IMG/VR virus record: IMGVR_UViG_3300024262_003767
Length of the DNA: 64,000 bases
Origin: a virus
Direction: 5' to 3' (one strand)
This document shows, piece after piece, positions 1-62,191 of the stretch (its first letter is position 1; each line of letters starts with the position of its first letter). A model generated the notes under the pieces. It searched no databases. It was not told where the DNA came from and saw nothing but the letters and a program-made list of their open reading frames with translations. A program made the translations under genes and the position numbers.

Positions 1-1279
1 AAGAAAAAGGCTAGTTTCTTAATATTTTTACCTTCACATTTTGGATTAACACACATAATTTCAACTCCACTTTTATTCCAAACTAACTCAGAACCACAAC
101 TTGGACAATGTGTTGGAACATCTGCTTGTGTCGGTACTGAAACTCCAACGATTTTAGGAATAACAGATCCTGAACGAATAATTTCCACAACAGCATCTTT
201 ACCAATTTTATTATCTAAAATAAATTTCGCATTATAACCAGTCGCTCTTGAAATTGTCACACCTTCAACGTCAAATGGTACAACATTCACAACAGGTTTT
301 ACATAACCATTTTTTGATGTTTCCCAATCATTGAAAAGTGTTGGTGTTGATATTGGTTTTGCCCAATCTGATTTGTATGCAATTGCGTATGATGGATTGT
401 TATTTGTTTCTCTACCTAATTGTTTTCGTAATTTTTCATCATTGACATCAAGAACAATACCATCAATTTCATATTTTTCACCCCAAGTGTAATATAATTC
501 ATCTAACATTTCTGATGTTAGTTCAGAAATGCGAATTTTTTTGAAAGGAACTTTAAATCCTGTTTCTTTTTCAATGAGTTCAATTTGTTCTAACTTGCTC
601 ATATCTTCATCAGCAACACCATAACGAACATGATCAACAAATTCCCAATAAGGCGATACTTCATCGTGATTAACTAAGCCAGCAACCATATTACGAGGAT
701 TTTTATAAGGTTCACCATTACTTCTCACAAAATTATTTTCTTCAAAAACTTGTCTTGGAATAATGAGTTCTCCAATTGTGTAAAATTCAACAGTTGATGG
801 TTTAGAATCTGTGAATGTGTTTAGATGTTCTGTGATATTTTGACCTTCAATACCATCACCTCTTGAGTGTGATACTTGTGTAAATTCATTTCTAAGTGCG
901 GAAACGCCATCATATTTGGCTGTTGCGATTAATATTGTATTTAAAGGTATACCTTTATTTTTTGCCCATTTTTTTACTTCTTCAACAGTTTTCTTTTTTT
1001 CAAGTGAGTACATTGGTTTATCCAATGTTTCCATTCTTTCTGTTGAACCTAAATCTTCAACATTTTCAATAACAGCGTTATCAAAAAGTTCATCATTTGG
1101 TTTGATTTCTTTCATTTTTTCAACTAATCTATCATAGTCTCTATCAGAAAGTTCACCACTTTTTTTACCTAAAAATTCTTGAATATCTTCTGTAAGTTCT
1201 GATATATCTACTGGATTACCAATTCTATACCTTGCATTTGAGATTAAAATTGCGTCTTTTAGGTTCTGTTGAAATGTCA
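1..1279 (-). CDS. ligA: NAD+-dependent DNA ligase (LigA), N-terminal ~426 codons; 3' end runs off the left edge
   Basis: Own translation of minus strand from ATG at 1279 (absent from the ORF track because it is open-ended): ATAKYDGVS (KxDG adenylation site), SRGDG, NPRN, OB-fold region, CPSCGSEL..CVNPKC zinc finger. Confidence 0.9.
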
Positions 1280-1362
1280 TATTTTATGATTTTAATTTTT
1301 TGTTTTAAATTATAGTACAAAAGTAAGGATAATATTTGAATAAAAAAAGAAAATTTAATTTT

Positions 1363-3689: not shown

Positions 3690-4088
3690 TTAGTAATAAT
3701 TTATATAATTTACAATTGGTAAAAATAAATTTTTAGGGAAATTTTTCCAATCAAACCATCCAATTTCTGTACATTTTTCAGGTTCCATAATTTTGGCATC
3801 ATACGATTTAGATTGACACCTTACAAAAATTGTAATATAATGCAAATCCTCTTCAATAAACATATCATTAGTAAATCTATCAACTTGTAAATTGATGATA
3901 TCTAGTCCTGTTTCTTCTTTTGCTTCTCTGATTGCACAATCTACAATTGTTTCAAATTTGTCTAATTTTCCACCAGGGAAACTCCAGGTTCCTTCGCTGT
4001 GAGCACCTTTTCTTTTCATTAGAAGAACTTTACCATCGTAATCTTCTATTATAACACCTACGCCTATGTGTGGTCTATTACATTTCAT
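3690..4088 (-). CDS. Nudix hydrolase
   Basis: Nudix box GGKLDKFETIVDCAIREAKEETGL (Gx5Ex7REuxEExGu). Confidence 0.8.
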   Translation of the reverse strand: MKCNRPHIGVGVIIEDYDGKVLLMKRKGAHSEGTWSFPGGKLDKFETIVDCAIREAKEETGLDIINLQVDRFTNDMFIEEDLHYITIFVRCQSKSYDAKIMEPEKCTEIGWFDWKNFPKNLFLPIVNYINYY

Positions 4089-4705: not shown

Positions 4706-5215
4706 TTAAATGTTATTTTGTCTAATTATTTCTTCGAAAATAGTTGATTTTAAATCTTCATACAAATCTTCAAGTGAATTATTAATTTTCTGAGATGTTC
4801 GTATCACTCTTGTTTGTATTATTACATCATCTTTTCTTTCATATTCTGGATCTATACCAACCACTAATCTCATTGCTGTAGGTAAATATTTGCCATATTC
4901 AAATAATGTAATAGGATTTAGTGAACCTTTAGAAAACCAAAAAAGTATAATATTTGATTCTTTTAATTTATTATGTTCCCAAATGATTTGTTCTTTTAAT
5001 TTATTTCTTGATATTTTCTTTGACATTTTCTTCCGTCTCGGATTAAAAATGTCCGTGTGTTCAAACATATTTTTAGTTTGTGGATATTTTTCAGACTTTA
5101 TCTTTTCAATTATTTCATTTTGCCAATTTGGACAATTTGAAATTCCACCTGCTAAAAATAATTTAATTTTATTCAGGCTTTTAAGTTTACTCGGGGCTTC
5201 TAATATTTTTAACAT
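4706..5215 (-). CDS. Nucleoside 2-deoxyribosyltransferase-like protein
   Basis: KIKLFLAGGISNCPNWQ near the N-terminus, and W..L..SNIILFWFS...PITLFEYG, resemble the Nuc_deoxyri_tr2 pattern; motif-level only. Confidence 0.4.
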   Translation of the reverse strand: MLKILEAPSKLKSLNKIKLFLAGGISNCPNWQNEIIEKIKSEKYPQTKNMFEHTDIFNPRRKKMSKKISRNKLKEQIIWEHNKLKESNIILFWFSKGSLNPITLFEYGKYLPTAMRLVVGIDPEYERKDDVIIQTRVIRTSQKINNSLEDLYEDLKSTIFEEIIRQNNI

Positions 5216-5216
5216 T

Positions 5217-5651
5217 TTAATAGTCTGTTATTAATTTTCCAATTAGATGATCATATTCGTGTTGAATTATACGTGCCATAACACCTTCAAATTCTTGTTG
5301 TTTATACTCCCATGCTCTATTGTGATATTGTATTCTAACTCTACCTTTTCGTGTGACAGTTATTGGTATATCAGGCACACTCAAACAACCTTCAGTCATT
5401 TGTTCTGAATGACCAAATGCGTATATTTTAGGATTTATATATGTTTCCTCAAAACCTTCATATGAAACAATAAATAGGTTTAAATTTTTACTAACTTGTG
5501 GTGCTGCTAATCCAACCCCAGTTGATGATCTCAAAGTTTCAAACATATCCGATATTAACTTTTTAGAATGTTCATTATTTATAACATCTATGTTTGGTTT
5601 TCTTAATATACCTCTTGGATCTTGATTATATTTTATTACATCTAATATCAT
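5217..5651 (-). CDS. def: Peptide deformylase
   Basis: All three PDF motifs: GVGLAAPQ, EGCLSVP, QHEYDHL. Confidence 0.9.
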   Translation of the reverse strand: MILDVIKYNQDPRGILRKPNIDVINNEHSKKLISDMFETLRSSTGVGLAAPQVSKNLNLFIVSYEGFEETYINPKIYAFGHSEQMTEGCLSVPDIPITVTRKGRVRIQYHNRAWEYKQQEFEGVMARIIQHEYDHLIGKLITDY

Positions 5652-5657
5652 TATTTG

Positions 5658-6491
5658 TTATATAATTTTTAATTTTTTAAGTTTATCTTTATCATAAACT
5701 TCTATTTTTTTGTCTCTATATTGTTTTTTAAAAGCAAGATATTTATCTTTTGCATCATCTCTCCACCAGCCTTTAACTTCAACATATAAATCACAATCAA
5801 TAAGGTAAAAATCTGGTCTATATGTTCCTTCAGCATTATTATAATTGATAGGAAATGCTTCTGGTTCAAAGAACCATTCTATGTTATTTTTATCCAAATA
5901 AGTTGCATATTTTATTTCCCAAGAACTTCTCATCCACACAGAATCACCATTTTTACATTTATACCATTCACCTTTACCATGATAACATTTACCATAAAAA
6001 TTAGATTCCTTACCTCTTTTTACATTTTTACTTTTATTGATTAGCATTTTTTGATATCTTATGTTTGCTTCTATTTCGCCATATTTTTCTAACCAAACAC
6101 TAAATACTGAACGACCATACATTGGATTTTTATCACCAGACATTTTGACACTTATCTTTTTTTTAGTTTTGTCTGAATGATAATTACCTATGTTAGATTG
6201 ACTTATTTTTTTCTTTACCTCGTCTGTTCTATGCTTACCTTTAAAATGATGTGTATTATTTTTGTGCCATTCGATAAGTTTTTCAATCTTAACATCTTTA
6301 TTTGTATTCGCATTCACTTTATTAGAACACGATAAGCATAGATCATTTTTAACTGCATATCTATATTTTTTTTCTACTTCAGCATCACAATCTTTACATT
6401 TCCAAATTACAGTCTTTTCGCTACTTGGTTTCAAATCATTTGAATAATACCCAAACATATCCTTTGTTTTTTGTTCTAAAATAATACCCAT
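5658..6491 (-). CDS. Homing-endonuclease-like protein (NUMOD3 repeats + PD-(D/E)xK core)
   Basis: CKDCDAEV..CLSC zinc ribbon; NUMOD3-like KISQSNIGNYHSDKTKKKISVKMSGDKNPMYGR; C-terminal YRPDFYLID..LYVEVKGWW; TATATATA box at 6514. Confidence 0.6.
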   Translation of the reverse strand: MGIILEQKTKDMFGYYSNDLKPSSEKTVIWKCKDCDAEVEKKYRYAVKNDLCLSCSNKVNANTNKDVKIEKLIEWHKNNTHHFKGKHRTDEVKKKISQSNIGNYHSDKTKKKISVKMSGDKNPMYGRSVFSVWLEKYGEIEANIRYQKMLINKSKNVKRGKESNFYGKCYHGKGEWYKCKNGDSVWMRSSWEIKYATYLDKNNIEWFFEPEAFPINYNNAEGTYRPDFYLIDCDLYVEVKGWWRDDAKDKYLAFKKQYRDKKIEVYDKDKLKKLKII

Positions 6492-6513
6492 AACATTTAT
6501 ATATTTTTCGATT

Positions 6514-6521
6514 ATATATAA
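6514..6521 (-). promoter_or_regulatory. TATATATA box
   Basis: 22 nt upstream of the start at 6491. Confidence 0.4.
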
Positions 6522-6554
6522 ATATATACCAGTTGTATTTGTACCAAAAACAAA

Positions 6555-7016
6555 TTATATTATATATTTCCAAAATTCTTCAGGTAAATGAATATTTGTT
6601 AAAAACAAAACATTTTTAAATAATGGTGCAATGTCTGATGCTGCATAACCTGCTAACCCGCAACCTATTGGAGTAACTAAAAATATTTGTTCCTTATGTT
6701 TACAAGCATATTCAATAAAATTACCAACATACTTTTGGATTTCGATTACTGATAATGTTTTAATATTTTTATCTTTTGTTGGTATTGCATATGTTTGACC
6801 CTGAATTCCTTCACCTTGACCATAAATTGCGCCCCATTTAATTGCTTGTTTTGCTGCCCCTTTACCATGTCTTCCCGATTTGTTAGATCCAAAAATAAAC
6901 ACTTCATTGTCTTTTAATTTAGTAATTTTTTCTGGTGTTACTCTTTTTTCTTTATTAATATATTTACTATCACTAAAGTAAGAACCTCTCATTGCTTCTG
7001 ATCTTCCATCTGACAT
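6555..7016 (-). CDS. Conserved phage-type hypothetical protein (FGSN..GxHGKGAA..IPTK..GCGLAG pattern)
   Basis: Motifs VFIFGSNKSGRHGKGAAKQA, QTYAIPTKD, PIGCGLAGY look like a nucleotide-binding Rossmann-like fold; family not identified. Confidence 0.5.
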   Translation of the reverse strand: MSDGRSEAMRGSYFSDSKYINKEKRVTPEKITKLKDNEVFIFGSNKSGRHGKGAAKQAIKWGAIYGQGEGIQGQTYAIPTKDKNIKTLSVIEIQKYVGNFIEYACKHKEQIFLVTPIGCGLAGYAASDIAPLFKNVLFLTNIHLPEEFWKYII

Positions 7017-7137
7017 TGTTTTAATTGTTTTAATTTTAATTTTCTTAAATAACTATTTAATCCTTTTTCATTATTTACAAAATGTGATAACCCCATATTT
7101 TATATAATGTATTTTACTTTTTGTGATTTGTTTAAAT

Positions 7138-7166
7138 AAAAAAAGGGCTACAATAGCCCTTTTTCA
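7138..7166 (-). terminator. Terminator hairpin overlapping the stop of 7148..7390
   Basis: aaaaaaagggcta caa tagcccttttt. Confidence 0.6.
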
Positions 7167-7390
7167 ATCCATTTTCCATTAATTTTAACTTTATCAAGTT
7201 TTGTTAATGTAAATCTCCATTTTTCAGGAAAATCTAATAATCTTAGATTCATTTGTGTTACCATTTTATGAGCAGTTTTATACTCATTTTGATTAGTGTT
7301 CACCTCTATCAATTGATAAGGTGCGTGATACCCATTACGGTGTATCAGATCAACTCTCCAAAGTTGACATCTTTCGCTTGTGTTTGCCAT
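7148..7390 (-). CDS. Hypothetical protein
   Basis: ORF track; stop codon embedded in terminator hairpin 7138-7166. Confidence 0.5.
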   Translation of the reverse strand: MANTSERCQLWRVDLIHRNGYHAPYQLIEVNTNQNEYKTAHKMVTQMNLRLLDFPEKWRFTLTKLDKVKINGKWIEKGLL

Positions 7391-7446
7391 AATCTGAACT
7401 AGTCAGACTACGATGTATTAAAATACCTCATACAACTATATATTAT

Positions 7447-7818
7447 TTATTCTGTGTGAAGTTTTCTTATTTTTGATTTTTTATTTAGTTCATCAAGTTT
7501 CATCTTTCTCAACGCCAAATTACCTAAAAATCGTTTAACAGTGGTCCAAACCATGGTGCCTTTATCACCTTGTATTTTTATTTTACCTGGTTTTTTATCT
7601 AAAACTTTATATACCTTACCAACTGTAAAAGATTGTATCTTTTCTGCTGTTCCATTTTTAGAAAATCTTGGATCAAATGATAAATCTCTATCATCAAAAC
7701 ACAATATAGTATCACCTATATTACAATCTCCATGTTTCAACAACATTCTATCAAGTTCTATTTGTTTTTGGTAGAAATGTAAATTATAAAATTTTTTTGA
7801 ACGTAATTTATTTATCAT
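7447..7818 (-). CDS. Hypothetical protein
   Basis: ORF track; ends LRKMKLDELNKKSKIRKLHTE. Confidence 0.5.
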   Translation of the reverse strand: MINKLRSKKFYNLHFYQKQIELDRMLLKHGDCNIGDTILCFDDRDLSFDPRFSKNGTAEKIQSFTVGKVYKVLDKKPGKIKIQGDKGTMVWTTVKRFLGNLALRKMKLDELNKKSKIRKLHTE

Positions 7819-7838
7819 ATAATGATATATGATAAACT

Positions 7839-8660
7839 TTAAGAAATGTTTTCAAGTTTTAATGCTCTGATTTGTTTTTTAGAAAAAATATTAGTTTTTG
7901 ACTTCTTTATTAAATGTGAAAATATTTTATTTTGTATTAATTTTTTCTTTACGGAAAAATCCGCATTTACTATTTTTTCTTCAAATTCAATTAAACATTC
8001 AGGCTCACGACCATCACCTAAATAAACTTTATCTCCTACTGTGTGAAACCAAAACCATTCTATTTTAATGTCATTTTCTTTAAACAATTTATCTACTTCT
8101 GAACTTAAATAATAATAAAAATATGTTAATAATTCAGTTAAAAATTCAGTTTCAGAAAATCCATCATTACTATTTAAATAATAATACCAAAAATTACTAG
8201 GTTCAACACCTAACTCAAGACAAAGATTATCAATTTTATCAATATTTTTGTTGGTTTTATTAAAAACATAGTCATTAAACAAACTTTTAAATGATTTAGT
8301 ATCTCCATTACCTTTATCACAATTACATTTTGAACACATTGTCTGATAATTGGTAGAAGTGTTTTTACCACCTTTAGATTTTGGTATGATGTGATCTTTC
8401 GTCATTAAAATTTCATCACCGTTTTCATTTACACCATACATATTGATGTGATATTTTTCAATTTCGGGTAAATGCTTCTCAATTGCTAAAAAAATTCCTT
8501 CAAGTCCACATTCAACACAGAATCTATTTTCTTGAAATAATTTGTATCGTTGTGAGGTTATCTTAACAGTAACCCCGTTAATTGTTCGGTATCTATTTGG
8601 TCCTACACTATCCTTTAGTTTTTTTAAATAACTTATATCTAATTTACTATGTCTTATCAT
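7839..8660 (-). CDS. HNH homing endonuclease
   Basis: CVECG zinc knuckle, then HNH core LMTKDHIIPKSKGGKNTSTNYQTMCSKCNCDKGN. Confidence 0.75.
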   Translation of the reverse strand: MIRHSKLDISYLKKLKDSVGPNRYRTINGVTVKITSQRYKLFQENRFCVECGLEGIFLAIEKHLPEIEKYHINMYGVNENGDEILMTKDHIIPKSKGGKNTSTNYQTMCSKCNCDKGNGDTKSFKSLFNDYVFNKTNKNIDKIDNLCLELGVEPSNFWYYYLNSNDGFSETEFLTELLTYFYYYLSSEVDKLFKENDIKIEWFWFHTVGDKVYLGDGREPECLIEFEEKIVNADFSVKKKLIQNKIFSHLIKKSKTNIFSKKQIRALKLENIS

Positions 8661-8675
8661 CTTTTTATTTAAAAA

Positions 8676-9188
8676 TTATTTCAGGTAAATAGGATCAACG
8701 TGATCAACTAACCATACACCATTTTCTGATTGATAAAATTTAATTTTATCAACAATCATTGGATAAGTATCAATTTTGAAGATATATGGAGTATCATTTT
8801 TACAATATCTATTTGCAACATCTAAAGCAGTATCATAATCAGCACTTAGATGTACATGATTTCTTTTCATTTTAGAAAGTCCATTTTTTCTAATTGATTT
8901 AACATTTCTAGATGCTGTGCCGTGATATAAAAATTTTGGTGGCATCTTTGATTTCAATTCAACATCAACTTTTAAAGAATGTCCTTGATTTGCTCTAATT
9001 TTAGTTTCATCTTCATTAAAACTAAATCTTTTCTTATCATTATTATCTACAATCCATTGTAAATCTTCAAATGATATATTAACTTTATTCAATAAATCAT
9101 CAACATCAACCCAACCATTTTTATCCATAGACAAATCTTCTGGGTTATGTCTTAATAAATAACTTATTTGTATTCCTTTATTTTTCAT
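8676..9188 (-). CDS. kptA: RNA 2'-phosphotransferase Tpt1/KptA
   Basis: Near end-to-end match to KptA landmarks: LSYLLRHNP, GWVDVDDLL, DKKRFSF, IRANQGHS, PPKFLYHGTASR, HVHLSAD, ENGVWL. Confidence 0.93.
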   Translation of the reverse strand: MKNKGIQISYLLRHNPEDLSMDKNGWVDVDDLLNKVNISFEDLQWIVDNNDKKRFSFNEDETKIRANQGHSLKVDVELKSKMPPKFLYHGTASRNVKSIRKNGLSKMKRNHVHLSADYDTALDVANRYCKNDTPYIFKIDTYPMIVDKIKFYQSENGVWLVDHVDPIYLK

Positions 9189-9227
9189 TTATTCCTTTAT
9201 TTTTCATCTATTTTATCTAATTACTCA

Positions 9228-9689
9228 TTATAATTGATTAAGTTTTAATTTTCTATTTTCTTTAATGAAAGAATTGTTGATTTTATTCCATAATTGTTCT
9301 TCTGAAAGTAGTTTTTGTATTTTATCATCAGAACAATACTCACATAAATATTTTTGTTTGATTAATCCCAAACAGACAGGACAATCTATGTCGCCATATT
9401 TACAGCCGTGGTTAATACAACAATGAGTTTCATGTACACCATATTTTTCCTTGGGTATTGTCGTTTTACCTTTTTTTACAGCTATCTCTTTTTCTTTTTG
9501 TTTTCGTTCAAACTCAGTTGTACTTTTGATATCTTCTAAAATATCATCACAAGTGAATTTGGAAAATTGATCTGATAATTTTTCATCCAAACCTTCAGTT
9601 CTCATTTTTTTAATAAAATCCGAAAATTCTTTCCTTTGCTCTTCATTTAAAGCAAATATTAAACTTGATATATCACTAAACATCTTCAT
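9228..9689 (-). CDS. Hypothetical Cys/His-rich (zinc-binding?) protein
   Basis: HETHCCINHGCKYGDIDCPVCLG..CEYC cluster; ends ENRKLKLNQL. Confidence 0.5.
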   Translation of the reverse strand: MKMFSDISSLIFALNEEQRKEFSDFIKKMRTEGLDEKLSDQFSKFTCDDILEDIKSTTEFERKQKEKEIAVKKGKTTIPKEKYGVHETHCCINHGCKYGDIDCPVCLGLIKQKYLCEYCSDDKIQKLLSEEQLWNKINNSFIKENRKLKLNQL

Positions 9690-9840
9690 CTTTCAACTTA
9701 TTATAAATTTCAAAATCAACACTACCATCTTCATTAATGTATTGTTCGTAAGTAAACTCACAACATGCTCTAATATGCATCATTGAAAATCCTTTTCGGT
9801 GACACATACACATACAAATATTTTCTTTTTTCTTTTCCAT
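9676..9840 (-). CDS. Small Cys-rich hypothetical protein (start moved to internal ATG)
   Basis: The ORF-track N-terminal extension is low-complexity; MEKKKENICMCMCHRKG.. from ATG at 9840. Confidence 0.3.
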   Translation of the reverse strand: MEKKKENICMCMCHRKGFSMMHIRACCEFTYEQYINEDGSVDFEIYNKLKDEDV

Positions 9841-10019
9841 ACGGCAAATATAAACAAAAATATGTAAATAAAAAATGTTCACTAAATAGAAAATGTGTTC
9901 GTTTTTGATGCACATTTTTAATTCATTATTATCACATTATTATATAATATAATGCTAATTAAGTACTTAGTATTTTTGGCACACTTTATGAGATAGTAAT
10001 AAAAAACAATATAGAAATT

Positions 10020-10265
10020 ATGAAAAATTACTTTAAACAAAGATTAAAAAGAGACAAACAAAATAAGATGATTGCTGGCGTTTGTTCAGGAATCGCAAAT
10101 TATTTTGATGTAGATCCAGTATTAGTAAGATCGGTATTTCTCGTTGGATTATTAATGCCGATTAATGGTTTTCCATTGATATATATTGTATTATGGATTT
10201 TAACACCATACGAAGAAGTTGAAGTTAAACATTATAGTAATGAAAAATATTCAGATGAAAAATAA
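10020..10265 (+). CDS. PspC-domain membrane protein
   Basis: KMIAGVCSGIANYFDVDPVLVRSVFLV followed by a TM helix. Confidence 0.75.
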   Translation: MKNYFKQRLKRDKQNKMIAGVCSGIANYFDVDPVLVRSVFLVGLLMPINGFPLIYIVLWILTPYEEVEVKHYSNEKYSDEK

Positions 10266-10275
10266 AATTAATAAA

Positions 10276-10515
10276 ATGAAAACAATGAAAACTATGCTAA
10301 TAATTTTAGCAATCCTAATGTTAGGAACAACACTTGGAACATCAACACCAAAAGTAAATGAATCTATTTTTGATTTTCCTGAAGAAGAATATATTGATGA
10401 TATTCCTTTTGATACAGATAAGGTAATTAACCAGGACACTTTTAAAATGGAAGAAGAAGGTTATATTGATGATATTCCATTTAATACAGAAAAAGTTGTA
10501 GAAGAATTATCATAA
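10276..10515 (+). CDS. Signal-peptide/anchor protein with two EE.YIDDIPF[DN]T.KV repeats
   Basis: MKTMKTMLIILAILMLGTTLG hydrophobic N-terminus; start uncertain (10219, 10255 or 10276); internal tandem repeat. Confidence 0.5.
   Translation: MKTMKTMLIILAILMLGTTLGTSTPKVNESIFDFPEEEYIDDIPFDTDKVINQDTFKMEEEGYIDDIPFNTEKVVEELS
10381..10500 (+). repeat. Imperfect direct repeat (about 45-50 nt units) encoding the IDDIPF motif twice
   Basis: gaagaagaatatattgatgatattccttttgatacagataaggta versus gaagaagaaggttatattgatgatattccatttaatacagaaaaagttgta. Confidence 0.7.
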
Positions 10516-11070
10516 TTCCTCTACAACTATATTTGTCTTATTGTGTTCGTGATCTGAATAAATATATTTACTTCCAAATAATGGCACTTCTTTCAAATTA
10601 TCTTTTACATACTTACCCCCCATTCCTTTCTTAACATAAGCAATTGTCATGTGTGCATGATAATCTGGATGATTATTTGTGTATTCAAATCTAAAGCACA
10701 TAGTCTTATTAAGTTCTCTTAACTTATCTGAGTGAATATCAAATTTAACAACATCATATTCATCTTGTTCAAATATTGTTATATCACCTCTCATAATATC
10801 ATCTATATCTTCCAATTTAGGTAAATATGTTTTGATATCTTTTGCTATACCATCATAGTGATGAAATCCATATAAAATTGTACAATGTGCCTCATCTTCA
10901 TATCCATAATCATTTGTATCATCATCATCTTGTGATGTGTAAATATCTTCTTCTGGTATCATTCTTCTAATAAATTCGATCCAATTACTAAAAGAAAAAT
11001 ATAACATCAGACAACCTAATTTTGGTTTATCATCTTCCATATAGTTATCAAATTTTAGTATTTCAGCCAT
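10510..11070 (-). CDS. 2H phosphoesterase superfamily protein (LigT/CPDase-like)
   Basis: Two HxT motifs, AHCTILYGF and AHMTIAYV. Start moved to MAEILKF (ATG at 11070), 20 nt from the TATATATA box. Confidence 0.65.
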   Translation of the reverse strand: MAEILKFDNYMEDDKPKLGCLMLYFSFSNWIEFIRRMIPEEDIYTSQDDDDTNDYGYEDEAHCTILYGFHHYDGIAKDIKTYLPKLEDIDDIMRGDITIFEQDEYDVVKFDIHSDKLRELNKTMCFRFEYTNNHPDYHAHMTIAYVKKGMGGKYVKDNLKEVPLFGSKYIYSDHEHNKTNIVVEEL

Positions 11071-11090
11071 AATTTTAATGCTTTTTCTTT

Positions 11091-11098
11091 TATATATA
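11091..11098. promoter_or_regulatory. TATATATA box centred in a divergent intergenic region
   Basis: 20 nt from the minus-strand ATG at 11070 and 22 nt from the plus-strand ATG at 11121. Confidence 0.45.
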
Positions 11099-11120
11099 AA
11101 TAAAAATATTTTTTGTTTAA

Positions 11121-11684
11121 ATGACTGAAAATTTAATAATTGTTGATGTACAACCAACATATAACAAATTTATAGATTTTGATATTGGTGAATTTGTTAG
11201 TTGGATAAATAACTCATCTTTTGATGAGGTTTTTTGTTTATATAATGGTCCTGAATTAGGTTATGAAGATGATGAATGGAGAATATCAAATTGGTATTAT
11301 GATTGGGGATTAGATAGGGATATAAGTTTTAGATTTTTTGAAAAATCTTATGGTTGGTTTCGTGATTTTATGGAAGATATGGATGATGATAATATAATTT
11401 CTATTGGTAAATATATGATAGAACACGACATATGGGATTCGAGATATTTTAAAAAGAAAGATATAAAAATTTTAAAAGATAGAGGAATAAGTACAAGGTA
11501 TTTAGGTAAAGAAAGTAGAGTAATGTATATACCTGAATTAAAAGATTACTTATCAAATAATATATATACTAACGAAGAAATTATTATTTGTGGTGGTGGT
11601 GTCGATGAATGTTACAAAGAAGTTAATATGTTATTGGAAATGATGGGATATAAATTTAAAGAAAAAATAAAATTTGTCTATTAA
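11121..11684 (+). CDS. Hypothetical protein, weak isochorismatase-like pattern
   Basis: LIIVDVQPTY at the N-terminus and IICGGGVDECY near the C-terminus resemble the cysteine-hydrolase fold; weak. Confidence 0.5.
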   Translation: MTENLIIVDVQPTYNKFIDFDIGEFVSWINNSSFDEVFCLYNGPELGYEDDEWRISNWYYDWGLDRDISFRFFEKSYGWFRDFMEDMDDDNIISIGKYMIEHDIWDSRYFKKKDIKILKDRGISTRYLGKESRVMYIPELKDYLSNNIYTNEEIIICGGGVDECYKEVNMLLEMMGYKFKEKIKFVY

Positions 11685-12703
11685 TGTATAGTAAAGAACC
11701 AATTATAAAGTTATTAACATCTATGATCAAATCTTATGTAGAATATGGAGATGAGATAGGTTATACAAAAAAAGAGATGGATGATATTATTGAAAAATAT
11801 GAGTTATTATATTTAGATTATGACTATAACGATGCAATCTTATTATATGACGAAAAATATGTAACAAAAAAAGAGTTTACAGATAAAATTCGTGAACTTT
11901 TTGATGATGCCCAAAATGGTCATTTAGATATTGATATCGTAGAATATATTGAGTTTTTAGAAAAAAATAGTTTAGTTAATATTTGTATAGATAAAATGGA
12001 ACGATCTGATATTAAAAAAGATGATGATGGTAATTGGTATTTTTATGCAAAAGGTGGTTGGGATTATTTTTGTGATTGGTTTAAGGTTGATAGTGATTAT
12101 AGAGACAATGTTGTTAAAATGATATTAAATGGTGAAGGTTATGAATTGTTTGATTATAATCCTAGCGATTATTCTGATTTTTCGTATATAAATATAAATG
12201 ATGATAATTTGAAATATTTGAAAACTATTGTTCAAAATATGAAAGATGATTTTGAACTTGATCAAGATGAAATAGATAATATAGGTGATATAGATGATGT
12301 TTATAGTATTGCTAAAAATAATGATTTAGATGATTTAGAGACTGCATTAACAATGGTAAATTGTAGAGCGCAGGGTTATGCTGATGAGGGTGAAGCATAT
12401 GACTACACAACTAATCTAATTCTAGAACATTTTAATCTTACTCTTGATGGATTAAAATGGGTAAAATTTAATAAAAATTCCGAATATGATGATACTTTAA
12501 AAATAAAATTTAAAGATGAAGAATCCGCAAAAAATGCTATAATTTTATTATATAAGATCGAAAATAGAACTTATGATGATGATGATTTTTTTATAGAATG
12601 GAGTTCACCCTACGGTGGTTGGATTGGAGACGCAGATAAATATATTGATGATGAAATACAAGAAAGAGTTCCAGATTATGTTGATGAAAAATATTTGCCT
12701 TAA
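11684..12703 (+). CDS. Highly acidic hypothetical protein
   Basis: ORF track; D/E-rich throughout (DDDDFFIEW, DQDEIDNIGDIDD). Confidence 0.55.
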   Translation: MYSKEPIIKLLTSMIKSYVEYGDEIGYTKKEMDDIIEKYELLYLDYDYNDAILLYDEKYVTKKEFTDKIRELFDDAQNGHLDIDIVEYIEFLEKNSLVNICIDKMERSDIKKDDDGNWYFYAKGGWDYFCDWFKVDSDYRDNVVKMILNGEGYELFDYNPSDYSDFSYININDDNLKYLKTIVQNMKDDFELDQDEIDNIGDIDDVYSIAKNNDLDDLETALTMVNCRAQGYADEGEAYDYTTNLILEHFNLTLDGLKWVKFNKNSEYDDTLKIKFKDEESAKNAIILLYKIENRTYDDDDFFIEWSSPYGGWIGDADKYIDDEIQERVPDYVDEKYLP

Positions 12704-13423: not shown

Positions 13424-13771
13424 ATGAAAAGAAAATATAGTGATTATTTGGACGCATCAGGAAATTGGCAATTATTAGTAAATGGTGACGAAGATAGTTG
13501 GTGGGATTATAAAGGTGATTGTATTGAAAGAATTTTAGAATTATTAAGTTCAGAAAGTGGTTTACAGGAATTTGATTATGAAGGTGACATTCTAGATTTA
13601 GAAGATCTTAAATATGAATTGGAAAGTCTTTCTGAAGAAGATTTTTATACTGTATTAGAAGAAATAAAAAGAGAGTGTGATTTTTCAGGTGATATTAAAA
13701 TGTTTAATATATCAGATGAAGATGAAATAGATTTCTTAAAAGAAGAAAAAGAGTATTACGATTTCGATTAA
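13424..13771 (+). CDS. Highly acidic hypothetical protein
   Basis: ORF track; D/E-rich. Confidence 0.5.
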   Translation: MKRKYSDYLDASGNWQLLVNGDEDSWWDYKGDCIERILELLSSESGLQEFDYEGDILDLEDLKYELESLSEEDFYTVLEEIKRECDFSGDIKMFNISDEDEIDFLKEEKEYYDFD

Positions 13772-14487
13772 TCTTTATCCAACATAAATAAAGCCAAATC
13801 ATATTTTATTGGATCTTGGCTATCCATCTTTTTCAAATTATTAGTTAGTTCAATAACTGATTTCCAATCGTTTTGATTTCTGGTAAGTAATCCAAATTCT
13901 CTTGACATGTTTCCAACATGAACATCAAGAGGTATGTATAAATTGGACTTATCTATATTTTTCCATAATCCAAAATCTACATTATCATCTCTAACCATCC
14001 ATCTTAAAAACATATTTAATCTTTTTGCCGCTGAATTGTTTTCTACGTTGGAAAGGTGTTTTTCACTTCGTTGTTCATGTTCAAGAGAGAAAAAAATTTT
14101 CCAAAATCTAATTAAACTATTTTTTATATCATTCGTGAAAAATGTTTCCAATCCACTATAATTCAAATAAATATATCTTAGAGATTTCATATAATATATC
14201 ATATCAATATCCTTAATTGTTCTATGTTTAAATCCTTTAAGATTATTAAAATCTCCATATAAAATATAATTGTGAGGTTCATTATTCATTAATTCCATTA
14301 ATGAGTTTGACTTATTTATGATAATATCTCTCCTACCAAATGATATTATAGAAGTTAAAAATGCTGAGATTTCTATATCATAGAAACATTCAAATCTATG
14401 TGGAATTGATATTGGGTCATTTTCTATGAATAATTTATTATTATTAATTTTATAACTTTCTTCAAGTTGCTCTTTTATGTCTTTCAT
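13768..14487 (-). CDS. TIGR02757/DUF2400-like protein (HhH-GPD glycosylase-related fold)
   Basis: FGRRD, KRLNMFLRWMVRDDNVDFGLW, IPLDVHV pattern as recalled for this family. Confidence 0.5.
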   Translation of the reverse strand: MKDIKEQLEESYKINNNKLFIENDPISIPHRFECFYDIEISAFLTSIISFGRRDIIINKSNSLMELMNNEPHNYILYGDFNNLKGFKHRTIKDIDMIYYMKSLRYIYLNYSGLETFFTNDIKNSLIRFWKIFFSLEHEQRSEKHLSNVENNSAAKRLNMFLRWMVRDDNVDFGLWKNIDKSNLYIPLDVHVGNMSREFGLLTRNQNDWKSVIELTNNLKKMDSQDPIKYDLALFMLDKD

Positions 14488-17500: not shown

Positions 17501-18367
17501 ATGACGAAAGTAGATTACAAAACGAATTATATTGAACCTCAAGATTTTAACCTCTTAATTTCAAAATTAAGAGGATTTTTTATGGAAAATGGTTTCCTTG
17601 AGACATTTCCACAACCTAAATTAACAATACTTGCAGCGTGTGAAGACCCAAAAACTGTTAGAAGTTTTGAATTTGGTGGTGAAAAATTTCCACTACCCCA
17701 AACAAATCAGATGAACTTGGAAGAAGAACTTATGGTAGACTCAACAATAGATGGACTTTTTTGCTTAACAGCATCATATAGAGATGAACCAAACCCTATT
17801 GAAGGTCGCCACATGAAATCATTTCCAATGTTTGAAGCAGAACATAAAGGGGATTTTTCAAATCTAATACAAACAATAAGTGAGTGTTGTGTGTATTTAG
17901 GTTTAGTCGAAAAGGTTGCCGATATCCCAATATTCACATATGATGAACTTTGTGAACATTATAAAGTTGAAGATTTAACTTCTACTGAAGAAACATTGAT
18001 GTGTAAAGAATATGGTGATGTTGTCGCTATTACTATGTTTCCTGATAGGACAGATCCATTTTTCAACATGCGTGTTGATGGTTGTAACTTAAAAGGTGAA
18101 AAATTGTCCAACAAAGTAGATTTTATTGTTTGTGGACAGGAAACATTTGGTTGTGCTGAAAGAGAGATAGACATAAACTTAATGAGGAATAACTTCCACA
18201 CAATTAGTAATGGCGGGTATTCTGGACTATTATTTGAAAAATTTGGTAAGGAAAGAGTTGAAAAGGAATTGGAAGACTTTTTGAAATTGCCAATGATTGA
18301 AAGGTGGGGATTTGGTTGTGGTTTGACTAGATTATCAAGAGCAATGAAAAAGAAAGGATTAATTTAA
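17501..18367 (+). CDS. Stand-alone class-II aminoacyl-tRNA-synthetase catalytic core (AsnA/EpmA/AspRS-AsnRS-like), no anticodon-binding domain
   Basis: Motif-2-like ASYRDEPNPIEGRHMKSFPMFEAE and motif-3-like GFGCGLTRLSRAM; 288 aa. Confidence 0.6.
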   Translation: MTKVDYKTNYIEPQDFNLLISKLRGFFMENGFLETFPQPKLTILAACEDPKTVRSFEFGGEKFPLPQTNQMNLEEELMVDSTIDGLFCLTASYRDEPNPIEGRHMKSFPMFEAEHKGDFSNLIQTISECCVYLGLVEKVADIPIFTYDELCEHYKVEDLTSTEETLMCKEYGDVVAITMFPDRTDPFFNMRVDGCNLKGEKLSNKVDFIVCGQETFGCAEREIDINLMRNNFHTISNGGYSGLLFEKFGKERVEKELEDFLKLPMIERWGFGCGLTRLSRAMKKKGLI

Positions 18368-24113: not shown

Positions 24114-24908
24114 TTATTTGATATTTACAACATAAAATGCTTTCTTCTTATGAAGAACATCAATGAAAGTGATGCTAGTGTTGTCACCTTTATATGGTTT
24201 TAAAGTGTGAACATCACCACAAGGATTATGTCCAACTATCTGATGATATCCAACTATTGGTTTATTTGCCAATTCTTTATCTAACCATAGTGGTCCACCT
24301 ACTTTACAATGTCCACCTCTACGATGACCAACATCAAACATACATTCCATTCTATGAGTAAATGCCAAATTCAATTTATCTGCAAGGTTGTTGATTGTAT
24401 AATCAATTTCCATTCTTTTTAGAAATTCTTCTACTTTATAGAATTCTTTATCAAATCTAGTATTGTACCAACCTTTGTGTACGCCTGCGTGAGTGAATAG
24501 ATAATTTTCAACTTGAAATGCCATTTGAAACAACTCAAAGTTTTTATTAAATAGTTCATATAAATCAAATCGCATTTCTGGACGATAACCACTACATTCA
24601 TATTTATTGCTATGAATCCAAGGTGAAGTTAATGCGTAATGTAATTCGTGATTACCCCACAACAGAATAACATTCCGTGGATAAAGTGTTTTGAATTTAA
24701 TTAAATCAATTATATTTTCTCGTATCTGATTGTTATCTTTATCAAAAGCATCACAGTAGTCACCAAGAAAAACATAATAATCATAATCCATATCAACAAT
24801 ATCATATATCTGGTTGCCTTCTTCCATTTGAAGAAGGTAACTGATATCGGCAAAAGTTTTCCAAACATTTCTACCGTGCAAATCTCCTATGACCATTATT
24901 TTTTTCAT
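24114..24908 (-). CDS. Calcineurin-like metallophosphoesterase (Ser/Thr phosphatase/ApaH-like)
   Basis: IMVIGDLHGR, FLGDYCD, WGNHE; start moved to MKKIMVIG (ATG at 24908). Confidence 0.7.
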   Translation of the reverse strand: MKKIMVIGDLHGRNVWKTFADISYLLQMEEGNQIYDIVDMDYDYYVFLGDYCDAFDKDNNQIRENIIDLIKFKTLYPRNVILLWGNHELHYALTSPWIHSNKYECSGYRPEMRFDLYELFNKNFELFQMAFQVENYLFTHAGVHKGWYNTRFDKEFYKVEEFLKRMEIDYTINNLADKLNLAFTHRMECMFDVGHRRGGHCKVGGPLWLDKELANKPIVGYHQIVGHNPCGDVHTLKPYKGDNTSITFIDVLHKKKAFYVVNIK

Positions 24909-24949
24909 AATGCAAAGATACAACTTTTCTTATTATAAAAAAAGAGGTA

Positions 24950-27324: not shown

Positions 27325-27361
27325 ATTAAAAAGCCTAATTATATTAGGCTTTTTAATTTAA
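27321..27361. terminator. Bidirectional terminator, ~19-bp perfect palindrome including both stop codons
   Basis: ttaaattaaaaagcctaat tat attaggctttttaatttaa between convergent genes. Confidence 0.7.
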
Positions 27362-28216
27362 TTCACCTTCCCAAACAATTTTATATTCATATTTACCTGG
27401 TAGTAGTATAATTTCTCTTTGATTTGTATGGTAATATTGTGTTGGTAATTTCTGTACGTCAACTAGTACATCTTTAGGTTGTACTTCCATCATAATAACA
27501 AAAGGTGGTGATGATGGTTGTTCATCCACAAATCTTCTAGCCACTAATATATTTGTAGTCCAAGATGTCGACATATTGAAATCGGATATAACTTTTTCAC
27601 CAACTTTGTATGGTGGGGTTTTTTTTGAAAAATGTTTTATTTGAACTTCTTCAATACCTTTATAAATCTTTAAAGGTTTATCTGGTTTAAAAGGTTTTAA
27701 TTCGTCTATAATATCTTGTGTTAATTTTGATAATAACAAAGAGCCAGAACCTATATATGAATATAACCAATCATCAGTTTTTTCAGATAATTCAACATTT
27801 ATCCTTTCAGGTGTATGTTTATCATATTTAGTAAATCCTCCAATGTAACGAAAAGATATCACATCTCCATTTTTAATTCTTGCTAACCATTCACCTGTTA
27901 TTGAATGTTTATAAAAATAACCAGAATAATCATCAACATCAACTTCTTCATCTTCACTAAATCCAAAAAAATCTACAATTTGTTTATATAGAGGTTTTTT
28001 TGTTTTAATTTGATAGATATATTCACTATTTATATCAGATGCGTCTGCTCTATTTGTTAAATAGATTCTTTTTAAATGATTTAGATTACTAAAATCTATA
28101 TCTTCTAATTTTAATGGTTCATCAGAATATAAATATAAATTTCCATTATATGTTTTTTGATCGTAATCTACTTCATTATAATCTACAAGTTCAAATAATT
28201 TGAATTTAGTTATCAT
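27353..28216 (-). CDS. Candidate ADP-ribosyltransferase (C3/Vip2-like R-S-E class, variant K-STS-QxE) with unknown N-terminal domain
   Basis: KIYKG (aa 183-187), FNMSTSW (aa 213-219), TNQREIILLPGKYEYKI (aa 264-280; compare the C3 exoenzyme QxE ARTT loop as recalled, roughly Q.E.LLPR....Y.I). 11-nt overlap with the CCA-enzyme gene. Confidence 0.4.
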   Translation of the reverse strand: MITKFKLFELVDYNEVDYDQKTYNGNLYLYSDEPLKLEDIDFSNLNHLKRIYLTNRADASDINSEYIYQIKTKKPLYKQIVDFFGFSEDEEVDVDDYSGYFYKHSITGEWLARIKNGDVISFRYIGGFTKYDKHTPERINVELSEKTDDWLYSYIGSGSLLLSKLTQDIIDELKPFKPDKPLKIYKGIEEVQIKHFSKKTPPYKVGEKVISDFNMSTSWTTNILVARRFVDEQPSSPPFVIMMEVQPKDVLVDVQKLPTQYYHTNQREIILLPGKYEYKIVWEGELN

Positions 28217-45291: not shown

Positions 45292-45495
45292 ATGAAAACG
45301 TTAAAGAAAAACAATGAAATTAAAAGAGTAAAAGATTCTTCACCATCAGACGAGGCACAAATTCAAAGTTTATTAAACTCTGGATGGAAATATTGTCCGA
45401 AAAGTGAATGGAAAGCAACAAGACCTGTAAAGGAAAAAGTTGACAAGAAAAAAGTTGACAAGAAAGAGAATAAAAAAAGAGGTATAGATTCGTGA
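45292..45495 (+). CDS. Small basic hypothetical protein
   Basis: ORF track; KVDKKKVDKKENKKR. Confidence 0.4.
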   Translation: MKTLKKNNEIKRVKDSSPSDEAQIQSLLNSGWKYCPKSEWKATRPVKEKVDKKKVDKKENKKRGIDS

Positions 45496-62148: not shown

Positions 62149-62169
62149 AGATTTTTTGTTGTTTTATAG

Positions 62170-62177
62170 TATATATA
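62170..62177 (-). promoter_or_regulatory. TATATATA box
   Basis: 21 nt upstream of the endonuclease ATG at 62148, inside the split mre11 locus. Confidence 0.4.
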
Positions 62178-62191
62178 AAAATATAATACTA

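Follow-up and report, generated by a model that had tools for sequence, protein, structure and literature searches.

The yeast Tpt1-Cpd1-Poa1 route is one of the described systems closest to the locus presented here; in it, a 2'-phosphate is transferred to NAD+, and the resulting Appr>p is converted to Appr-1''-p and then to ADP-ribose. The same three enzyme types are found at the phage locus, but the phage shows no fungal-type ligase for an internal 2'-phosphate in the DNA inspected, its genes are not co-transcribed, its 2H protein is no orthologue of Cpd1 or LigT, and its macrodomain comes from a divergent phage family. For jumbo phages, an NAD+-dependent RNA repair by KptA, 2H and Macro/cREC proteins has been predicted (Iyer et al. 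2021, PMC7824862; Iyer et al. 2022, PMC9503650), so that the idea of KptA acting together with 2H, Macro and cREC is already published. In that prediction, as proposed here, KptA would clear 2'-phosphates while 2H, Macro, cREC and Nudix proteins would process ADPr>P, and NAD+ salvage genes are present in the genome. However, it assumes RNA ligase partners, whereas none is seen here and the partners of the 2H family are CCA-type nucleotidyltransferases; moreover, the macrodomain of the present locus belongs to an unannotated family. Anticodon-loop repair by T4 Pnkp-Rnl1 is likewise a phage answer to host tRNA cleavage that starts, as we propose here, at 2',3'-cyclic phosphate ends; it relies on a HAD phosphatase, a kinase and an ATP-dependent ligase and uses no NAD+, and none of these three enzymes was found in the 72.6 kb inspected. 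Finally, the E. coli CCA enzyme unites cyclic-phosphate healing and CCA addition in one protein, its HD domain removing 2',3'-cyclic phosphates (Yakunin 2004, as cited in PMC6961547). In this respect it resembles the 2H-CCA fusions described below (L100, P0233 and others), but it heals by a metal-dependent HD domain, and in the phage the 2H and nucleotidyltransferase proteins are encoded by separate genes 17 kb apart.

The source of the DNA is a large, very AT-rich uncultured phage. We inspected a stretch of 64 kb, referred to as the window, together with an 8.6-kb left flank taken from a second assembly (L169), which has 12,321 bases of perfect identity to the window, window position 1 corresponding to L169 position 8580. 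At least 39 kb of further DNA lies on the same contig outside these 72.6 kb, and the genome is probably much larger. Scans of essentially all ORFs of at least 130 aa against Pfam, PHROG or NCBIfam gave no match to an RNA ligase, RtcB or PNK in the window or the flank, and a motif search found no KxDG motif in any unannotated ORF. The initial annotation had noted that no RNA ligase was visible, which thus holds for the window and the flank alike, the search for ligases, RtcB and PNK having come back empty over the whole 72.6 kb. A fungal- or plant-type tRNA heal-and-seal set (Trl1/AtRNL-type ligase plus polynucleotide kinase) is likewise missing from the window and the flank. The sole ligase in the flank is an NAD+-dependent DNA ligase of the LigA type (653 aa; Pfam DNA_ligase_aden/OB/BRCT); the 5' part of its gene occupies 1..1280(-) and runs past the left end of the window, the gene spanning 7898..9859 in L169.

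The Tpt1/KptA gene (8676..9188(-), 170 aa) encodes a member of the NAD+-dependent RNA 2'-phosphotransferases of the ART superfamily. The protein matches PF01885 over profile positions 9-176 of 177 (E 6.6e-47, 160.3 bits for a cut-off of 26) and NF002014 with an E of 1.7e-58, under the equivalog cut-off, its scores against the NCBIfam equivalog models being 94-197 bits for strict cut-offs of 231-279. The best solved structure is that of Runella slithyformis Tpt1 (7kw8, E 1.1e-39). The segments LRHNP, KIRANQGHS and R-x-HVHLS are identical in the two proteins, on which basis we assign R13, H14, R65 and R109 as the catalytic tetrad; the tetrad positions in the Runella enzyme are those described in papers of the Shuman laboratory. 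All four residues are invariant in an alignment (A3) of the window protein with three phage Tpt1 proteins. Tpt1 is therefore intact and, as first annotated, full-length, and it is predicted to catalyze the NAD+-dependent transfer of an RNA 2'-phosphate. Canonically, Tpt1 acts on an internal 2'-phosphate; no other reaction of the enzyme comes near this one in efficiency, and for Runella Tpt1 it alone has been demonstrated. Terminal 2'-phosphates are removed by some Tpt1 enzymes, with specificity differing among orthologues, but poorly by those of Runella, human, yeast and E. coli (PMC6573784). In organisms without a fungal-type tRNA ligase, the role of Tpt1 remains obscure according to the Shuman laboratory (PMC6573784).

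At its longest, the ORF of the 2H gene spans 10510..11160(-) (216 aa). We place the true start at M31 (position 11070), since a 186-aa protein of identical sequence has been recorded (P0001), and this record also supports the start at 11070 given in the initial annotation. The 186-aa protein (10510..11070(-)) carries the two HxT motifs that had been recognized earlier, H62xT64 and H140xT142; across 38 homologues H62, T64 and T142 never vary, and at least 90% keep H140. Its AlphaFold model (pLDDT 88.9) significantly matches 2H-fold proteins only (E <= 1e-3). The earlier description as LigT/CPDase-like could not be retained: the LigT/ThpR model TIGR02258 gives 14.8 bits for a cut-off of 65.7, by which membership in the LigT family was rejected, and the nearest structures are the Acb1 anti-CBASS phosphodiesterases, not LigT or CPDases. 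In the Foldseek search Acb1 takes the first places (7t27 with E 7e-6, 9q2g, 7t26); viral 2'-5' PDEs and a poxvirus cGAMP PDE come next, with LigT and the CPDases lower (E. coli LigT 26th). Acb1, the anti-CBASS 2H phosphodiesterase of T4 and related phages, is also a small phage 2H protein, and in it, as in the window protein, the second catalytic histidine is embedded in the motif [DE]Y-x-PH-[IM]-T-[IL]-[AS]-Y; on the other hand, identity in the structural alignments is 16-17%, and the Pfam scores, 23.5 bits for Acb1 (PF23474) and 21.7 bits for 2_5_RNA_ligase2, both stay under the 27-bit cut-off. We describe the protein as a member of a distinct phage 2H subfamily, with 6,077 representative clusters in the family as a whole.

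The gap between the Tpt1 and 2H genes is 1,322 bases, in agreement with the 1.3 kb reported initially. Two small ORFs on the + strand and a terminator-like hairpin with a 16-bp stem (10494..10528(-)), located at the 3' end of the 2H gene between convergent genes, intervene (three terminator-like sites were found for 0.9 expected). Tpt1 and the 2H gene therefore do not form one operon and are separate transcription units. Between Tpt1 and the downstream genes lies an HNH homing-type endonuclease (7839..8660(-), PF14279 with E 1.6e-12), a mobile interruption outside the pathway, and a NUMOD3/endonuclease-I-like homing endonuclease (5658..6491(-)) is a further mobile interruption. The downstream genes include a DrHyd-type, nucleoside 2-deoxyribosyltransferase-like protein (4706..5215(-), PF15891 with E 1.5e-17), a homologue of which occurs near the 2H gene of one other locus (L003), and a NUDIX hydrolase (3690..4088(-), PF00293 with E 1.9e-21), a candidate pyrophosphatase for ADP-ribose or its derivatives with homologues near the 2H gene in seven loci. 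Together with the NAD+-dependent DNA ligase, NADAR and DUF4326, these make up an NAD+/ADP-ribose gene set. Further off, this set includes a cREC (cyclic-phosphate processing receiver-like) protein (52165..52569(-), PF20274 with E 4.3e-21 and 75.8 bits for a cut-off of 27; PHROG 1479), which bears out the REC-like candidate first proposed, a PncA-like nicotinamidase (51377..52078(-), PF00857; PDB nicotinamidases with E 2.5e-14) and a protein of the nicotinate phosphoribosyltransferase (NAPRTase) family of NAD+ salvage (50077..51375(-), PF04095 with E 2.3e-45 and PF17767 with E 7.9e-32). The immediate context of Tpt1 and the 2H gene is thus this NAD+/ADP-ribose gene set, not an RNA-repair operon. 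A calcineurin-like metallophosphoesterase (24114..24923(-), PF00149 with E 2.2e-10) is a possible phosphate-end processing enzyme; it weakly matches the phosphoesterase part of PHROG 8238 'RNA ligase', and in L002 a homologue with 41% identity is encoded 2.3 kb away from 2H.

The same gene set contains a 153-aa protein (6555..7016(-)) of the A1S_2505 family 'phage non-structural protein', a family of no assigned function until now, which folds as a divergent macrodomain. It has no match to Pfam Macro; its closest structural neighbours are DarG and TARG1, with Poa1p among the matches. DarG and TARG1 strip ADP-ribose from nucleic acids. Conserved glycine-rich loops (GSNxxGxHGxGAA and IGCGLAG), judged by eye, fit phosphate-binding loops. 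The protein, which may bind ADP-ribose, is a candidate processor of ADP-ribose derivatives. With this fold, the locus contains a triad of Tpt1, 2H and Macro proteins. Viral Tpt1 neighbourhoods vary highly, and linkage of Tpt1 to 2H recurs in one other lineage only (44 Tpt1 groups and 65 2H groups compared). In that unrelated lineage (L005/L006) a classical Macro protein (PF01661), Tpt1, a metallophosphoesterase and the 2H protein are all encoded within 4.5 kb; Tpt1 and 2H are 51% and 37% identical to those of the window, the macrodomain is non-orthologous, and the metallophosphoesterase abutting the 2H gene in L006 is not orthologous to 24114..24923. At another locus (L015) an A1S_2505-domain protein is encoded 3.4 kb from Tpt1. 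Among the matches listed from an independent protein library, no 2H domain is fused to Tpt1 or to a macro-like domain.

The partner to which the 2H family is repeatedly linked is a CCA-type nucleotidyltransferase. The window encodes a protein of the class II tRNA nucleotidyltransferase/poly(A) polymerase family without an HD domain (28206..29465(-)); it has both the PolyA_pol head domain (PF01743 with E 1.5e-30) and the RNA-binding region (PF12627 with E 1.1e-3). Its earlier designation as a CCA-adding enzyme stands as regards the class II PolyA_pol-head assignment; the specific activity is probable, not proven, because E. coli poly(A) polymerase (PAP I, 1.5e-31) matches it as well as CCA-adding enzymes do (4.2e-29). 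A CCA-type enzyme is fused to or near the 2H protein in 10 of 65 viral lineages, compared with none of 44 control lineages for Tpt1 (Fisher p = 0.005). In six of the 65, 2H and a complete CCA-adding enzyme form a single polypeptide, such as the 687-aa protein of L100 (2H at 100-265, CCA enzyme at 295-665), and in four further lineages the CCA enzyme lies 2.8-3.6 kb from the 2H gene. In the independent library, 16 of the best 150 2H representatives carry a CCA/PAP-type domain, often abutting the 2H domain, and nine more have another Pol-beta nucleotidyltransferase ahead of it. Many of the 2H-CCA fusions sit in giant polyvalent proteins; simple two-domain proteins exist as well (L100, P0233). 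The CCA-enzyme fusion partners point the 2H family to RNA ends, not to signalling nucleotides. YqeY, a GatB-type, tRNA-binding domain, is found near the 2H gene in nine loci. The term 'CCA' is not mentioned in PMC5512222, nor 'CCA-adding' in PMC9503650.

The best single reading of the locus is a ligase-independent, NAD+-dependent healing of cyclic-phosphate 3' ends of RNA (tRNA), after which the ADP-ribose by-product would be disposed of, and we advance it tentatively, at a little less than an even chance. What the sequences show is that the genes are present with intact catalytic residues and folds, that the triad recurs, and that 2H is repeatedly fused to CCA-type enzymes. The substrates, the order of the steps and the joint action of the genes, as we infer them, would be the following. 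Host metal-independent RNases would leave 2',3'-cyclic phosphates at RNA 3' ends, most likely of tRNA; the 2H esterase would open the cyclic phosphate to a 2'-phosphate, which Tpt1 would move to NAD+, and the class II nucleotidyltransferase would put back the missing CCA nucleotides. Appr>p would then be linearised by the 2H esterase or cREC and either dephosphorylated by the macrodomain or split by NUDIX, and nicotinamide from Tpt1 and NADases would be recycled by the nicotinamidase and NAPRTase. RNA-end healing had already been suggested in the initial annotation; all of the genes named there are present, and the 2H-CCA association speaks for it, whereas the separate transcription units and the distance of the CCA-type and cREC genes (17 and 41 kb from the 2H gene) do not. 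The recurrence of the Tpt1-2H linkage in just one other lineage, the structural matches to Acb1, the Runella-like Tpt1 and the polyvalent fusions also count against it.

Alternatively, the locus may be an accessory island shared by independent counter-defence genes with no RNA-repair pathway, the 2H protein being an Acb1-like degrader of the cyclic oligonucleotide or 2'-5' signals of the host (as in CBASS, type III CRISPR and similar systems), and Tpt1, macrodomain, NADAR, NUDIX and cREC each neutralising NAD+-derived signals or toxins of the host. The rank of Acb1 ahead of LigT and CPDases in Foldseek and as best Pfam match argues for this, as do relatives that pass the Acb1 cut-off (L163 with 36 bits, L090 with 31.7 bits), the separate transcription of Tpt1 and 2H, and the variable Tpt1 surroundings. 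Furthermore, members of the 2H family frequently turn up in polyvalent proteins that carry ART-PolyVal domains, and polyvalent proteins join functionally unrelated counter-defence domains. For phage 2H domains of this kind, which reportedly are never associated with RNA ligases, a function in anti-signalling or as an RNase has been proposed (PMC5512222). Nevertheless, the window protein itself stays under the Acb1 gathering score, the family profile aligns with T4 Acb1 (gene 57B) over 19 columns only (hhalign probability 42%), and the archaeal LigT-like PH0099 outscores Acb1 (3.6e-4 vs. 2.8e-3). The recurrent link to CCA-type and Pol-beta nucleotidyltransferases, the two-domain proteins included, would also be left unexplained, as would the adjacency of YqeY and the Macro-Tpt1-2H arrangement of a second lineage. 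We consider this alternative unlikely; if true, the locus would be one more island of an already catalogued kind of NAD+/nucleotide counter-defence.

A classical heal-and-seal pathway with its ligase elsewhere in the genome would agree with the canonical Tpt1 reaction on internal 2'-phosphates, to which the activity shown for Runella Tpt1 is confined. In the manner of tRNA splicing in fungi and plants, 2H would make 2'-phosphate/3'-OH ends, a 2'-phosphate-dependent ligase would seal them, and Tpt1 would clear the junction. The contig runs on for at least 39 kb beyond the roughly 73 kb inspected; in addition, one viral lineage encodes an RNA ligase (PF09414) at most 3 kb from Tpt1, and AAA_33 kinases, a family that includes polynucleotide kinases, occur near Tpt1 in three. 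However, a ligase adjoins viral Tpt1 in only that one of 44 lineages, the 72.6 kb yielded no RNA ligase or PNK, and we know of no phage ligase requiring a 2'-phosphate. With such 2H domains also reported never to accompany RNA ligases (PMC5512222), sealing is decidedly improbable. Still less credible is the alternative raised in the initial annotation, that Tpt1 is an NAD+-dependent writer capping 5'-phosphate RNA or DNA ends with ADP-ribose; the TARG1/DarG-like macrodomain would then be the eraser and 2H unrelated. 5'-Phospho-ADP-ribosylation is established for some Tpt1 enzymes (PMC6573784; TRPT1, PMC9458441), and DarG and TARG1 are the nearest structures to the macrodomain next door; but the Runella enzyme, to which the window Tpt1 is closest, and the human one were inactive in 5' capping in Shuman laboratory assays (PMC6573784). 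Such capping would also leave the 2H protein unused, though its co-occurrence with Tpt1 and Macro recurs, and what a phage would gain from writer and eraser together is not obvious.

Beyond this phage, phage Tpt1 and, by extension, orphan bacterial Tpt1 might supply the 2'-phosphate step of a ligase-free, NAD+-dependent tRNA 3'-end repair, in which 2H would open, Tpt1 clear and a CCA-adding enzyme rebuild the end, with the A1S_2505 macrodomain disposing of the ADP-ribose phosphate. We hold this wider proposal to be doubtful; if true, it would give Tpt1 a physiological role in taxa without fungal-type ligases and reveal a new countermeasure against host nucleases attacking the tRNA acceptor end. 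Together with the 2H-CCA fusions, the locus turns the obscure role of Tpt1 into a question testable with three small soluble proteins, 2H, Tpt1 and the nucleotidyltransferase, applied sequentially to tRNA-N>p. Two results may be of use however the pathway turns out. A widespread phage 2H subfamily now has a recurrent partner, the Pol-beta/CCA-type nucleotidyltransferases, which argues that not every Acb1-like phage 2H protein degrades signalling nucleotides. The very large A1S_2505 family, with more than 2,800 homologues, is now assigned a macrodomain fold.

The open reading frame at 8676..9188 (minus strand) encodes a Tpt1/KptA (PF01885, E 6.6e-47) that is indeed full-length, as the initial annotation had it, and its best solved relative is the Tpt1 of Runella slithyformis (E 1.1e-39). 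The motifs of the Arg-His-Arg-Arg tetrad are identical in the Runella enzyme and map to R13, H14, R65 and R109 of the viral protein, residues that are invariant in the alignment with three phage Tpt1 proteins; an exact-protein look-up returned no identical Tpt1 on record. The 2H assignment of the open reading frame at 10510..11070 (minus strand; 186 residues from M31) is likewise borne out by the motifs H62xT64 and H140xT142, both conserved across 38 homologues, and by a structural model (pLDDT 88.9) that matches 2H-fold proteins exclusively. The sole record of an identical 2H protein (P0001) is a 1.4-kb contig. The proposed spacing of about 1.3 kb between the two genes holds; they are parted by two small plus-strand open reading frames and a terminator-like hairpin, and are separate transcription units. 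This hairpin, a perfect 16-bp stem followed by a T run, is located at 10494..10528, exactly at the junction of the 2H gene with a convergent plus-strand open reading frame, and is probably a bidirectional terminator. A sigma-70 promoter scan, which gave 38 sites against 43 expected from shuffles and hence no enrichment, was left out of the analysis.

A third protein of this region, encoded at 6555..7016, is a member of the NCBIfam "A1S_2505 family phage non-structural protein" (E 1.9e-42), and 2,863 homologues of it were recovered; it has no match in Pfam, and its PHROG is a function-unknown group. Fold searches reveal that it is a macrodomain and not the SLOG-type Rossmann domain also considered for it. 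Thus Tpt1, the 2H esterase and a macrodomain all lie within 4.5 kb of the window. The minus-strand run that starts at Tpt1 comprises an HNH endonuclease, two small open reading frames, the macrodomain protein, a second homing endonuclease, peptide deformylase, a nucleoside 2-deoxyribosyltransferase-like (DrHyd-type) protein, two further small open reading frames and a NUDIX hydrolase. To its left is an NAD+-dependent DNA ligase, whose 5' part occupies 1..1280 (minus strand). A contig of a second metagenome assembly (ENA ERZ27249621, k141_1281268, 70,065 bp), which matches the window with 0 mismatches over 12,321 bases, extends about 48 kb to the left of it; the 8.6 kb of this extension that were read (L169 1..8579) encode an NADAR protein and a DUF4326 protein, and also carry a membrane gene set of LemA and two TPM-phosphatase genes. 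About 40 kb to the right are the cREC domain at 52165..52569, which proved to be real, a nicotinamidase (PDB nicotinamidases, E 2.5e-14) and an NAPRTase. The same gene set constitutes the large-phage NAD+/ADP-ribose repertoire of Iyer et al. (PMC7824862, PMC9503650). Directly upstream of cREC, an SPFH/Band_7 protein (501 residues) and an adjoining membrane protein are encoded at 53034..55134 (minus strand); a Band_7 gene adjoins NAPRTase in the related locus L003.

The missing ligase was re-examined by scanning essentially all open reading frames of at least 130 residues together with the extra flank: neither an RNA ligase nor RtcB or a polynucleotide kinase was found, and the KxDG motif is absent from the unannotated open reading frames of the window. 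What had been described as a CCA-adding enzyme is present as a class II nucleotidyltransferase, whose matches do not distinguish CCA-adding from poly(A) activity. Its gene is overlapped by 11 bases by an open reading frame of 287 residues (27353..28216, minus strand) that displays, by eye, ADP-ribosyltransferase-like motifs (IYKG, MSTSW, NQREI); this reading found no support in Pfam, PHROGs or PDB sequence searches.

In a Pfam census of the 291 genes within 3 kb of viral Tpt1, the matches listed include at least four Metallophos, three AAA_33 and two NUDIX proteins and at least one each of RNA ligase, NADAR, NAPRTase and NAD synthase, all counts, including those of 2H and Macro, being lower bounds. 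By the matches listed, viral Tpt1 thus rarely adjoins an RNA ligase, and the missing ligase is the rule for viral Tpt1 and not an oddity of the window. The sample of viral Tpt1 comprised 80 loci (44 lineages at 85% identity), that of the 2H family 83 loci (65 lineages). Any one family adjoins Tpt1 in at most 6 of the 44 lineages, and the neighbours of Tpt1 in the annotated phages phiCD211 and Dickeya JA29 are uninformative. The expected conserved Tpt1-2H operon was not recovered, the linkage occurring in just one other lineage: a 2H protein of the window type is encoded within 10 kb of Tpt1 only in L005/L006 among the 80 Tpt1 loci, and Tpt1 near the 2H family only in L005 among the 83 2H loci. 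The linkage is therefore not general. In this unrelated lineage, the Tpt1 and 2H proteins of which are 51% and 37% identical to those of the window, the order is a classical Macro (PF01661), two open reading frames, Tpt1, two open reading frames, a metallophosphoesterase, 2H, YqeY and a PRPP-synthetase-like gene. Since its macrodomain is not orthologous to that of the window, the triad was assembled twice. An A1S_2505-domain protein is also encoded 3.4 kb from Tpt1 in a further locus (L015). The PRPP-synthetase-like gene, at L006 15505..16455 and 5 kb from Tpt1, could encode, in place of a true PRPP synthetase, an ADPR-pyrophosphate synthetase that serves a phage pathway of NAD+ reconstitution.

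The most informative result of the analysis was the association data of the 2H family. In six of the 65 lineages a complete CCA-adding enzyme, with PolyA_pol head, RNA-binding region and tRNA_NucTran2_2, shares a single polypeptide with the 2H domain, either in a simple protein of 687 residues (L100 9695..11758; 2H, residues 100-265; CCA enzyme, 295-665) or within polyvalent proteins of 1,373-2,417 residues (L090, 6755..10876; L092; L112, 6434..10834; L127; L133/L134, with L133 at 4913..12166), the giant ones of which also bear ART-PolyVal and a second 2H-like domain. In four further lineages a CCA enzyme is encoded 2.8-3.6 kb upstream of the 2H gene; within 10 kb of Tpt1, no CCA-type enzyme is encoded in any of the 44 control lineages (Fisher p = 0.005). 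An independent search of 1.84 billion representative proteins yielded 6,077 2H-family clusters; among the best 150 of these representatives, 16 contain a CCA/PAP-type domain, often directly abutting 2H (such fusions include P0292, P0240 and P0233, the last a two-domain protein of 576 residues), and nine more have another nucleotidyltransferase, of Pol-beta type (PF01909), ahead of 2H (P0209, P0194, P0281, P0288, P0266, P0235, P0175, P0195 and P0204). A second recurrent architecture consists of the PF01909 nucleotidyltransferase, 2H and a C-terminal domain of about 120 residues, not assigned to a family, which occurs in 20 of the best 150 representatives. It is present in the viral loci as L098 (9221..10912), which is one of the four lineages with an upstream CCA enzyme and the only one of them whose 2H protein has a Pfam match to an N-terminal PF01909 domain, the corresponding proteins of L093 and L104 giving no nucleotidyltransferase match. 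The N-terminal jackhmmer probe consisted of residues 1-230; the results with L098 1-280 and L093 1-300, which overlap the 2H domain, were excluded. None of the best 150 of the 6,077 representatives has a Tpt1 or macro-like domain fused to 2H. Genes near 2H include YqeY (9 loci, adjoining), NUDIX (7), NAPRTase (5) and cREC (2). According to the polyvalent-protein paper, in which CCA enzymes are unmentioned, the phage 2H domain of this kind never associates with RNA ligases (PMC5512222). In L003 (8535..10543) a dNMP kinase, DUF7220 and a MazG-like gene precede the 2H gene, an order recalling T4 57B (Acb1), 57A and gene 1 (dNMP kinase), which may be a trace of ancestry shared with Acb1.

The reading that we tentatively favour, while holding it somewhat short of probable, is that RNA 3' ends are repaired without a ligase, tRNA acceptor ends being the likeliest target. 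From the gene presence, catalytic residues, folds, recurrences and fusions observed, we infer the following substrates and order of steps. Host metal-independent RNases would leave cyclic-phosphate 3' ends; the 2H esterase would convert the cyclic phosphate to a 2'-phosphate, which Tpt1 would move to NAD+, and the nucleotidyltransferase would then rebuild the end. The by-product Appr>p would be degraded by the 2H esterase or cREC and then by the macrodomain or NUDIX, and nicotinamide recycled by nicotinamidase and NAPRTase. Precedents are the E. coli CCA enzyme, whose HD domain removes 2',3'-cyclic phosphates (Yakunin 2004, as cited in PMC6961547), and some Tpt1 enzymes, which remove terminal 2'-phosphates (PMC6573784). 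On the other hand, the Runella, human, yeast and E. coli enzymes act poorly on such ends (PMC6573784), and the window Tpt1 is closest to that of Runella. Further weaknesses are that Tpt1 and 2H are not co-transcribed and are rarely linked, that polyvalent proteins combine unrelated domains, and that the CCA and poly(A) activities are not separated.

It is possible, if doubtful, that these are instead independent counter-defence genes, 2H degrading signalling nucleotides in the manner of Acb1. The best Foldseek matches of the 2H model are Acb1 structures (E 7e-6 to 1e-4), at E-values barely apart from those of rotavirus VP3, Usb1 and a poxvirus cGAMP PDE, and the hhalign alignment with T4 Acb1 is confined to 19 columns in the region of the second HxT motif. 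The family profile scores the archaeal LigT-like PH0099 (3.6e-4) and Acb1 (2.8e-3) about equally, the window protein itself being under both Pfam cut-offs; its score is far under the LigT equivalog cut-off, so that the LigT-like label first applied to it is not retained. We class it in a phage 2H subfamily of its own, the substrate of which sequence and fold do not discriminate. A classical heal-and-seal repair, with the ligase elsewhere in the genome, outside the window and its 8.6-kb flank, appears unlikely in view of the rarity of ligases beside viral Tpt1. It is quite improbable that Tpt1 is a 5'-phosphate ADP-ribosyl capping enzyme, a role in which the DarG/TARG1-like macrodomain would serve as eraser. 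That a few jumbo phages have KptA, and that 2H and Macro process its ADPr>P product, is explicit in PMC7824862 and developed further in PMC9503650; the locus thus belongs to a known, computationally predicted kind. The apparent additions are the assignment of the A1S_2505 family as a macrodomain, the recurrent 2H-CCA and 2H-Pol-beta nucleotidyltransferase architectures, and the counts showing viral Tpt1 without linkage to ligases, which from gene context alone offer a concrete, testable answer to the role of Tpt1 without a fungal-type ligase.

As for the source genome, the window has a G+C content of about 26% and is densely coding, with most of its genes on the minus strand; its 64 kb contain no tRNA genes. 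A 10-kb stretch compared by Megablast with annotated phages gave no match, leaving the window without a close annotated relative, and its left-end sequence has no match in the viral contig collection. Its genes suggest that the phage is a large one, among them T4-like SbcC/SbcD, thymidine kinase, NusG, peptide deformylase and ClpB; annotated-phage relatives of the 2H protein are found in Maribacter phages and uncultured phages of 480-640 kb. HNH, GIY-YIG and NUMOD endonucleases are numerous, and those of homing type unusually dense (at 5658, 7839, 18364, 37324, 61267 and 1422); a DUF7487/NUMOD3 homing-endonuclease-like gene (61267..62148) splits the SbcC-like (1,055 residues) and SbcD-like (218 residues) genes (58112..62848, minus strand). 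Cell-like genes are those of a ClpB-type disaggregase of 838 residues (46956..49472, minus strand), NusG (39403..39912, plus strand), peptide deformylase (5217..5651, minus strand) and a DUF2400/TIGR02757 protein (13768..14487, minus strand). A hybrid histidine kinase of 726 residues (PAS, HisKA, HATPase and receiver domain; 31774..33954, minus strand) is unusual in an apparent phage genome. The 288-residue protein at 17501..18367 (plus strand) corresponds to the catalytic core alone of a class II aminoacyl-tRNA synthetase (D/K/N type); being below full-synthetase length, it may be AsnA- or EpmA-like. Finally, two weak radical-SAM-like proteins, one of which hits the PHROG "Fe-S-cluster redox domain", and a Methyltransf_24 methyltransferase (38390..39280, minus strand; 45492..46370 and 44691..45284, plus strand) could form a nucleic-acid modification set.
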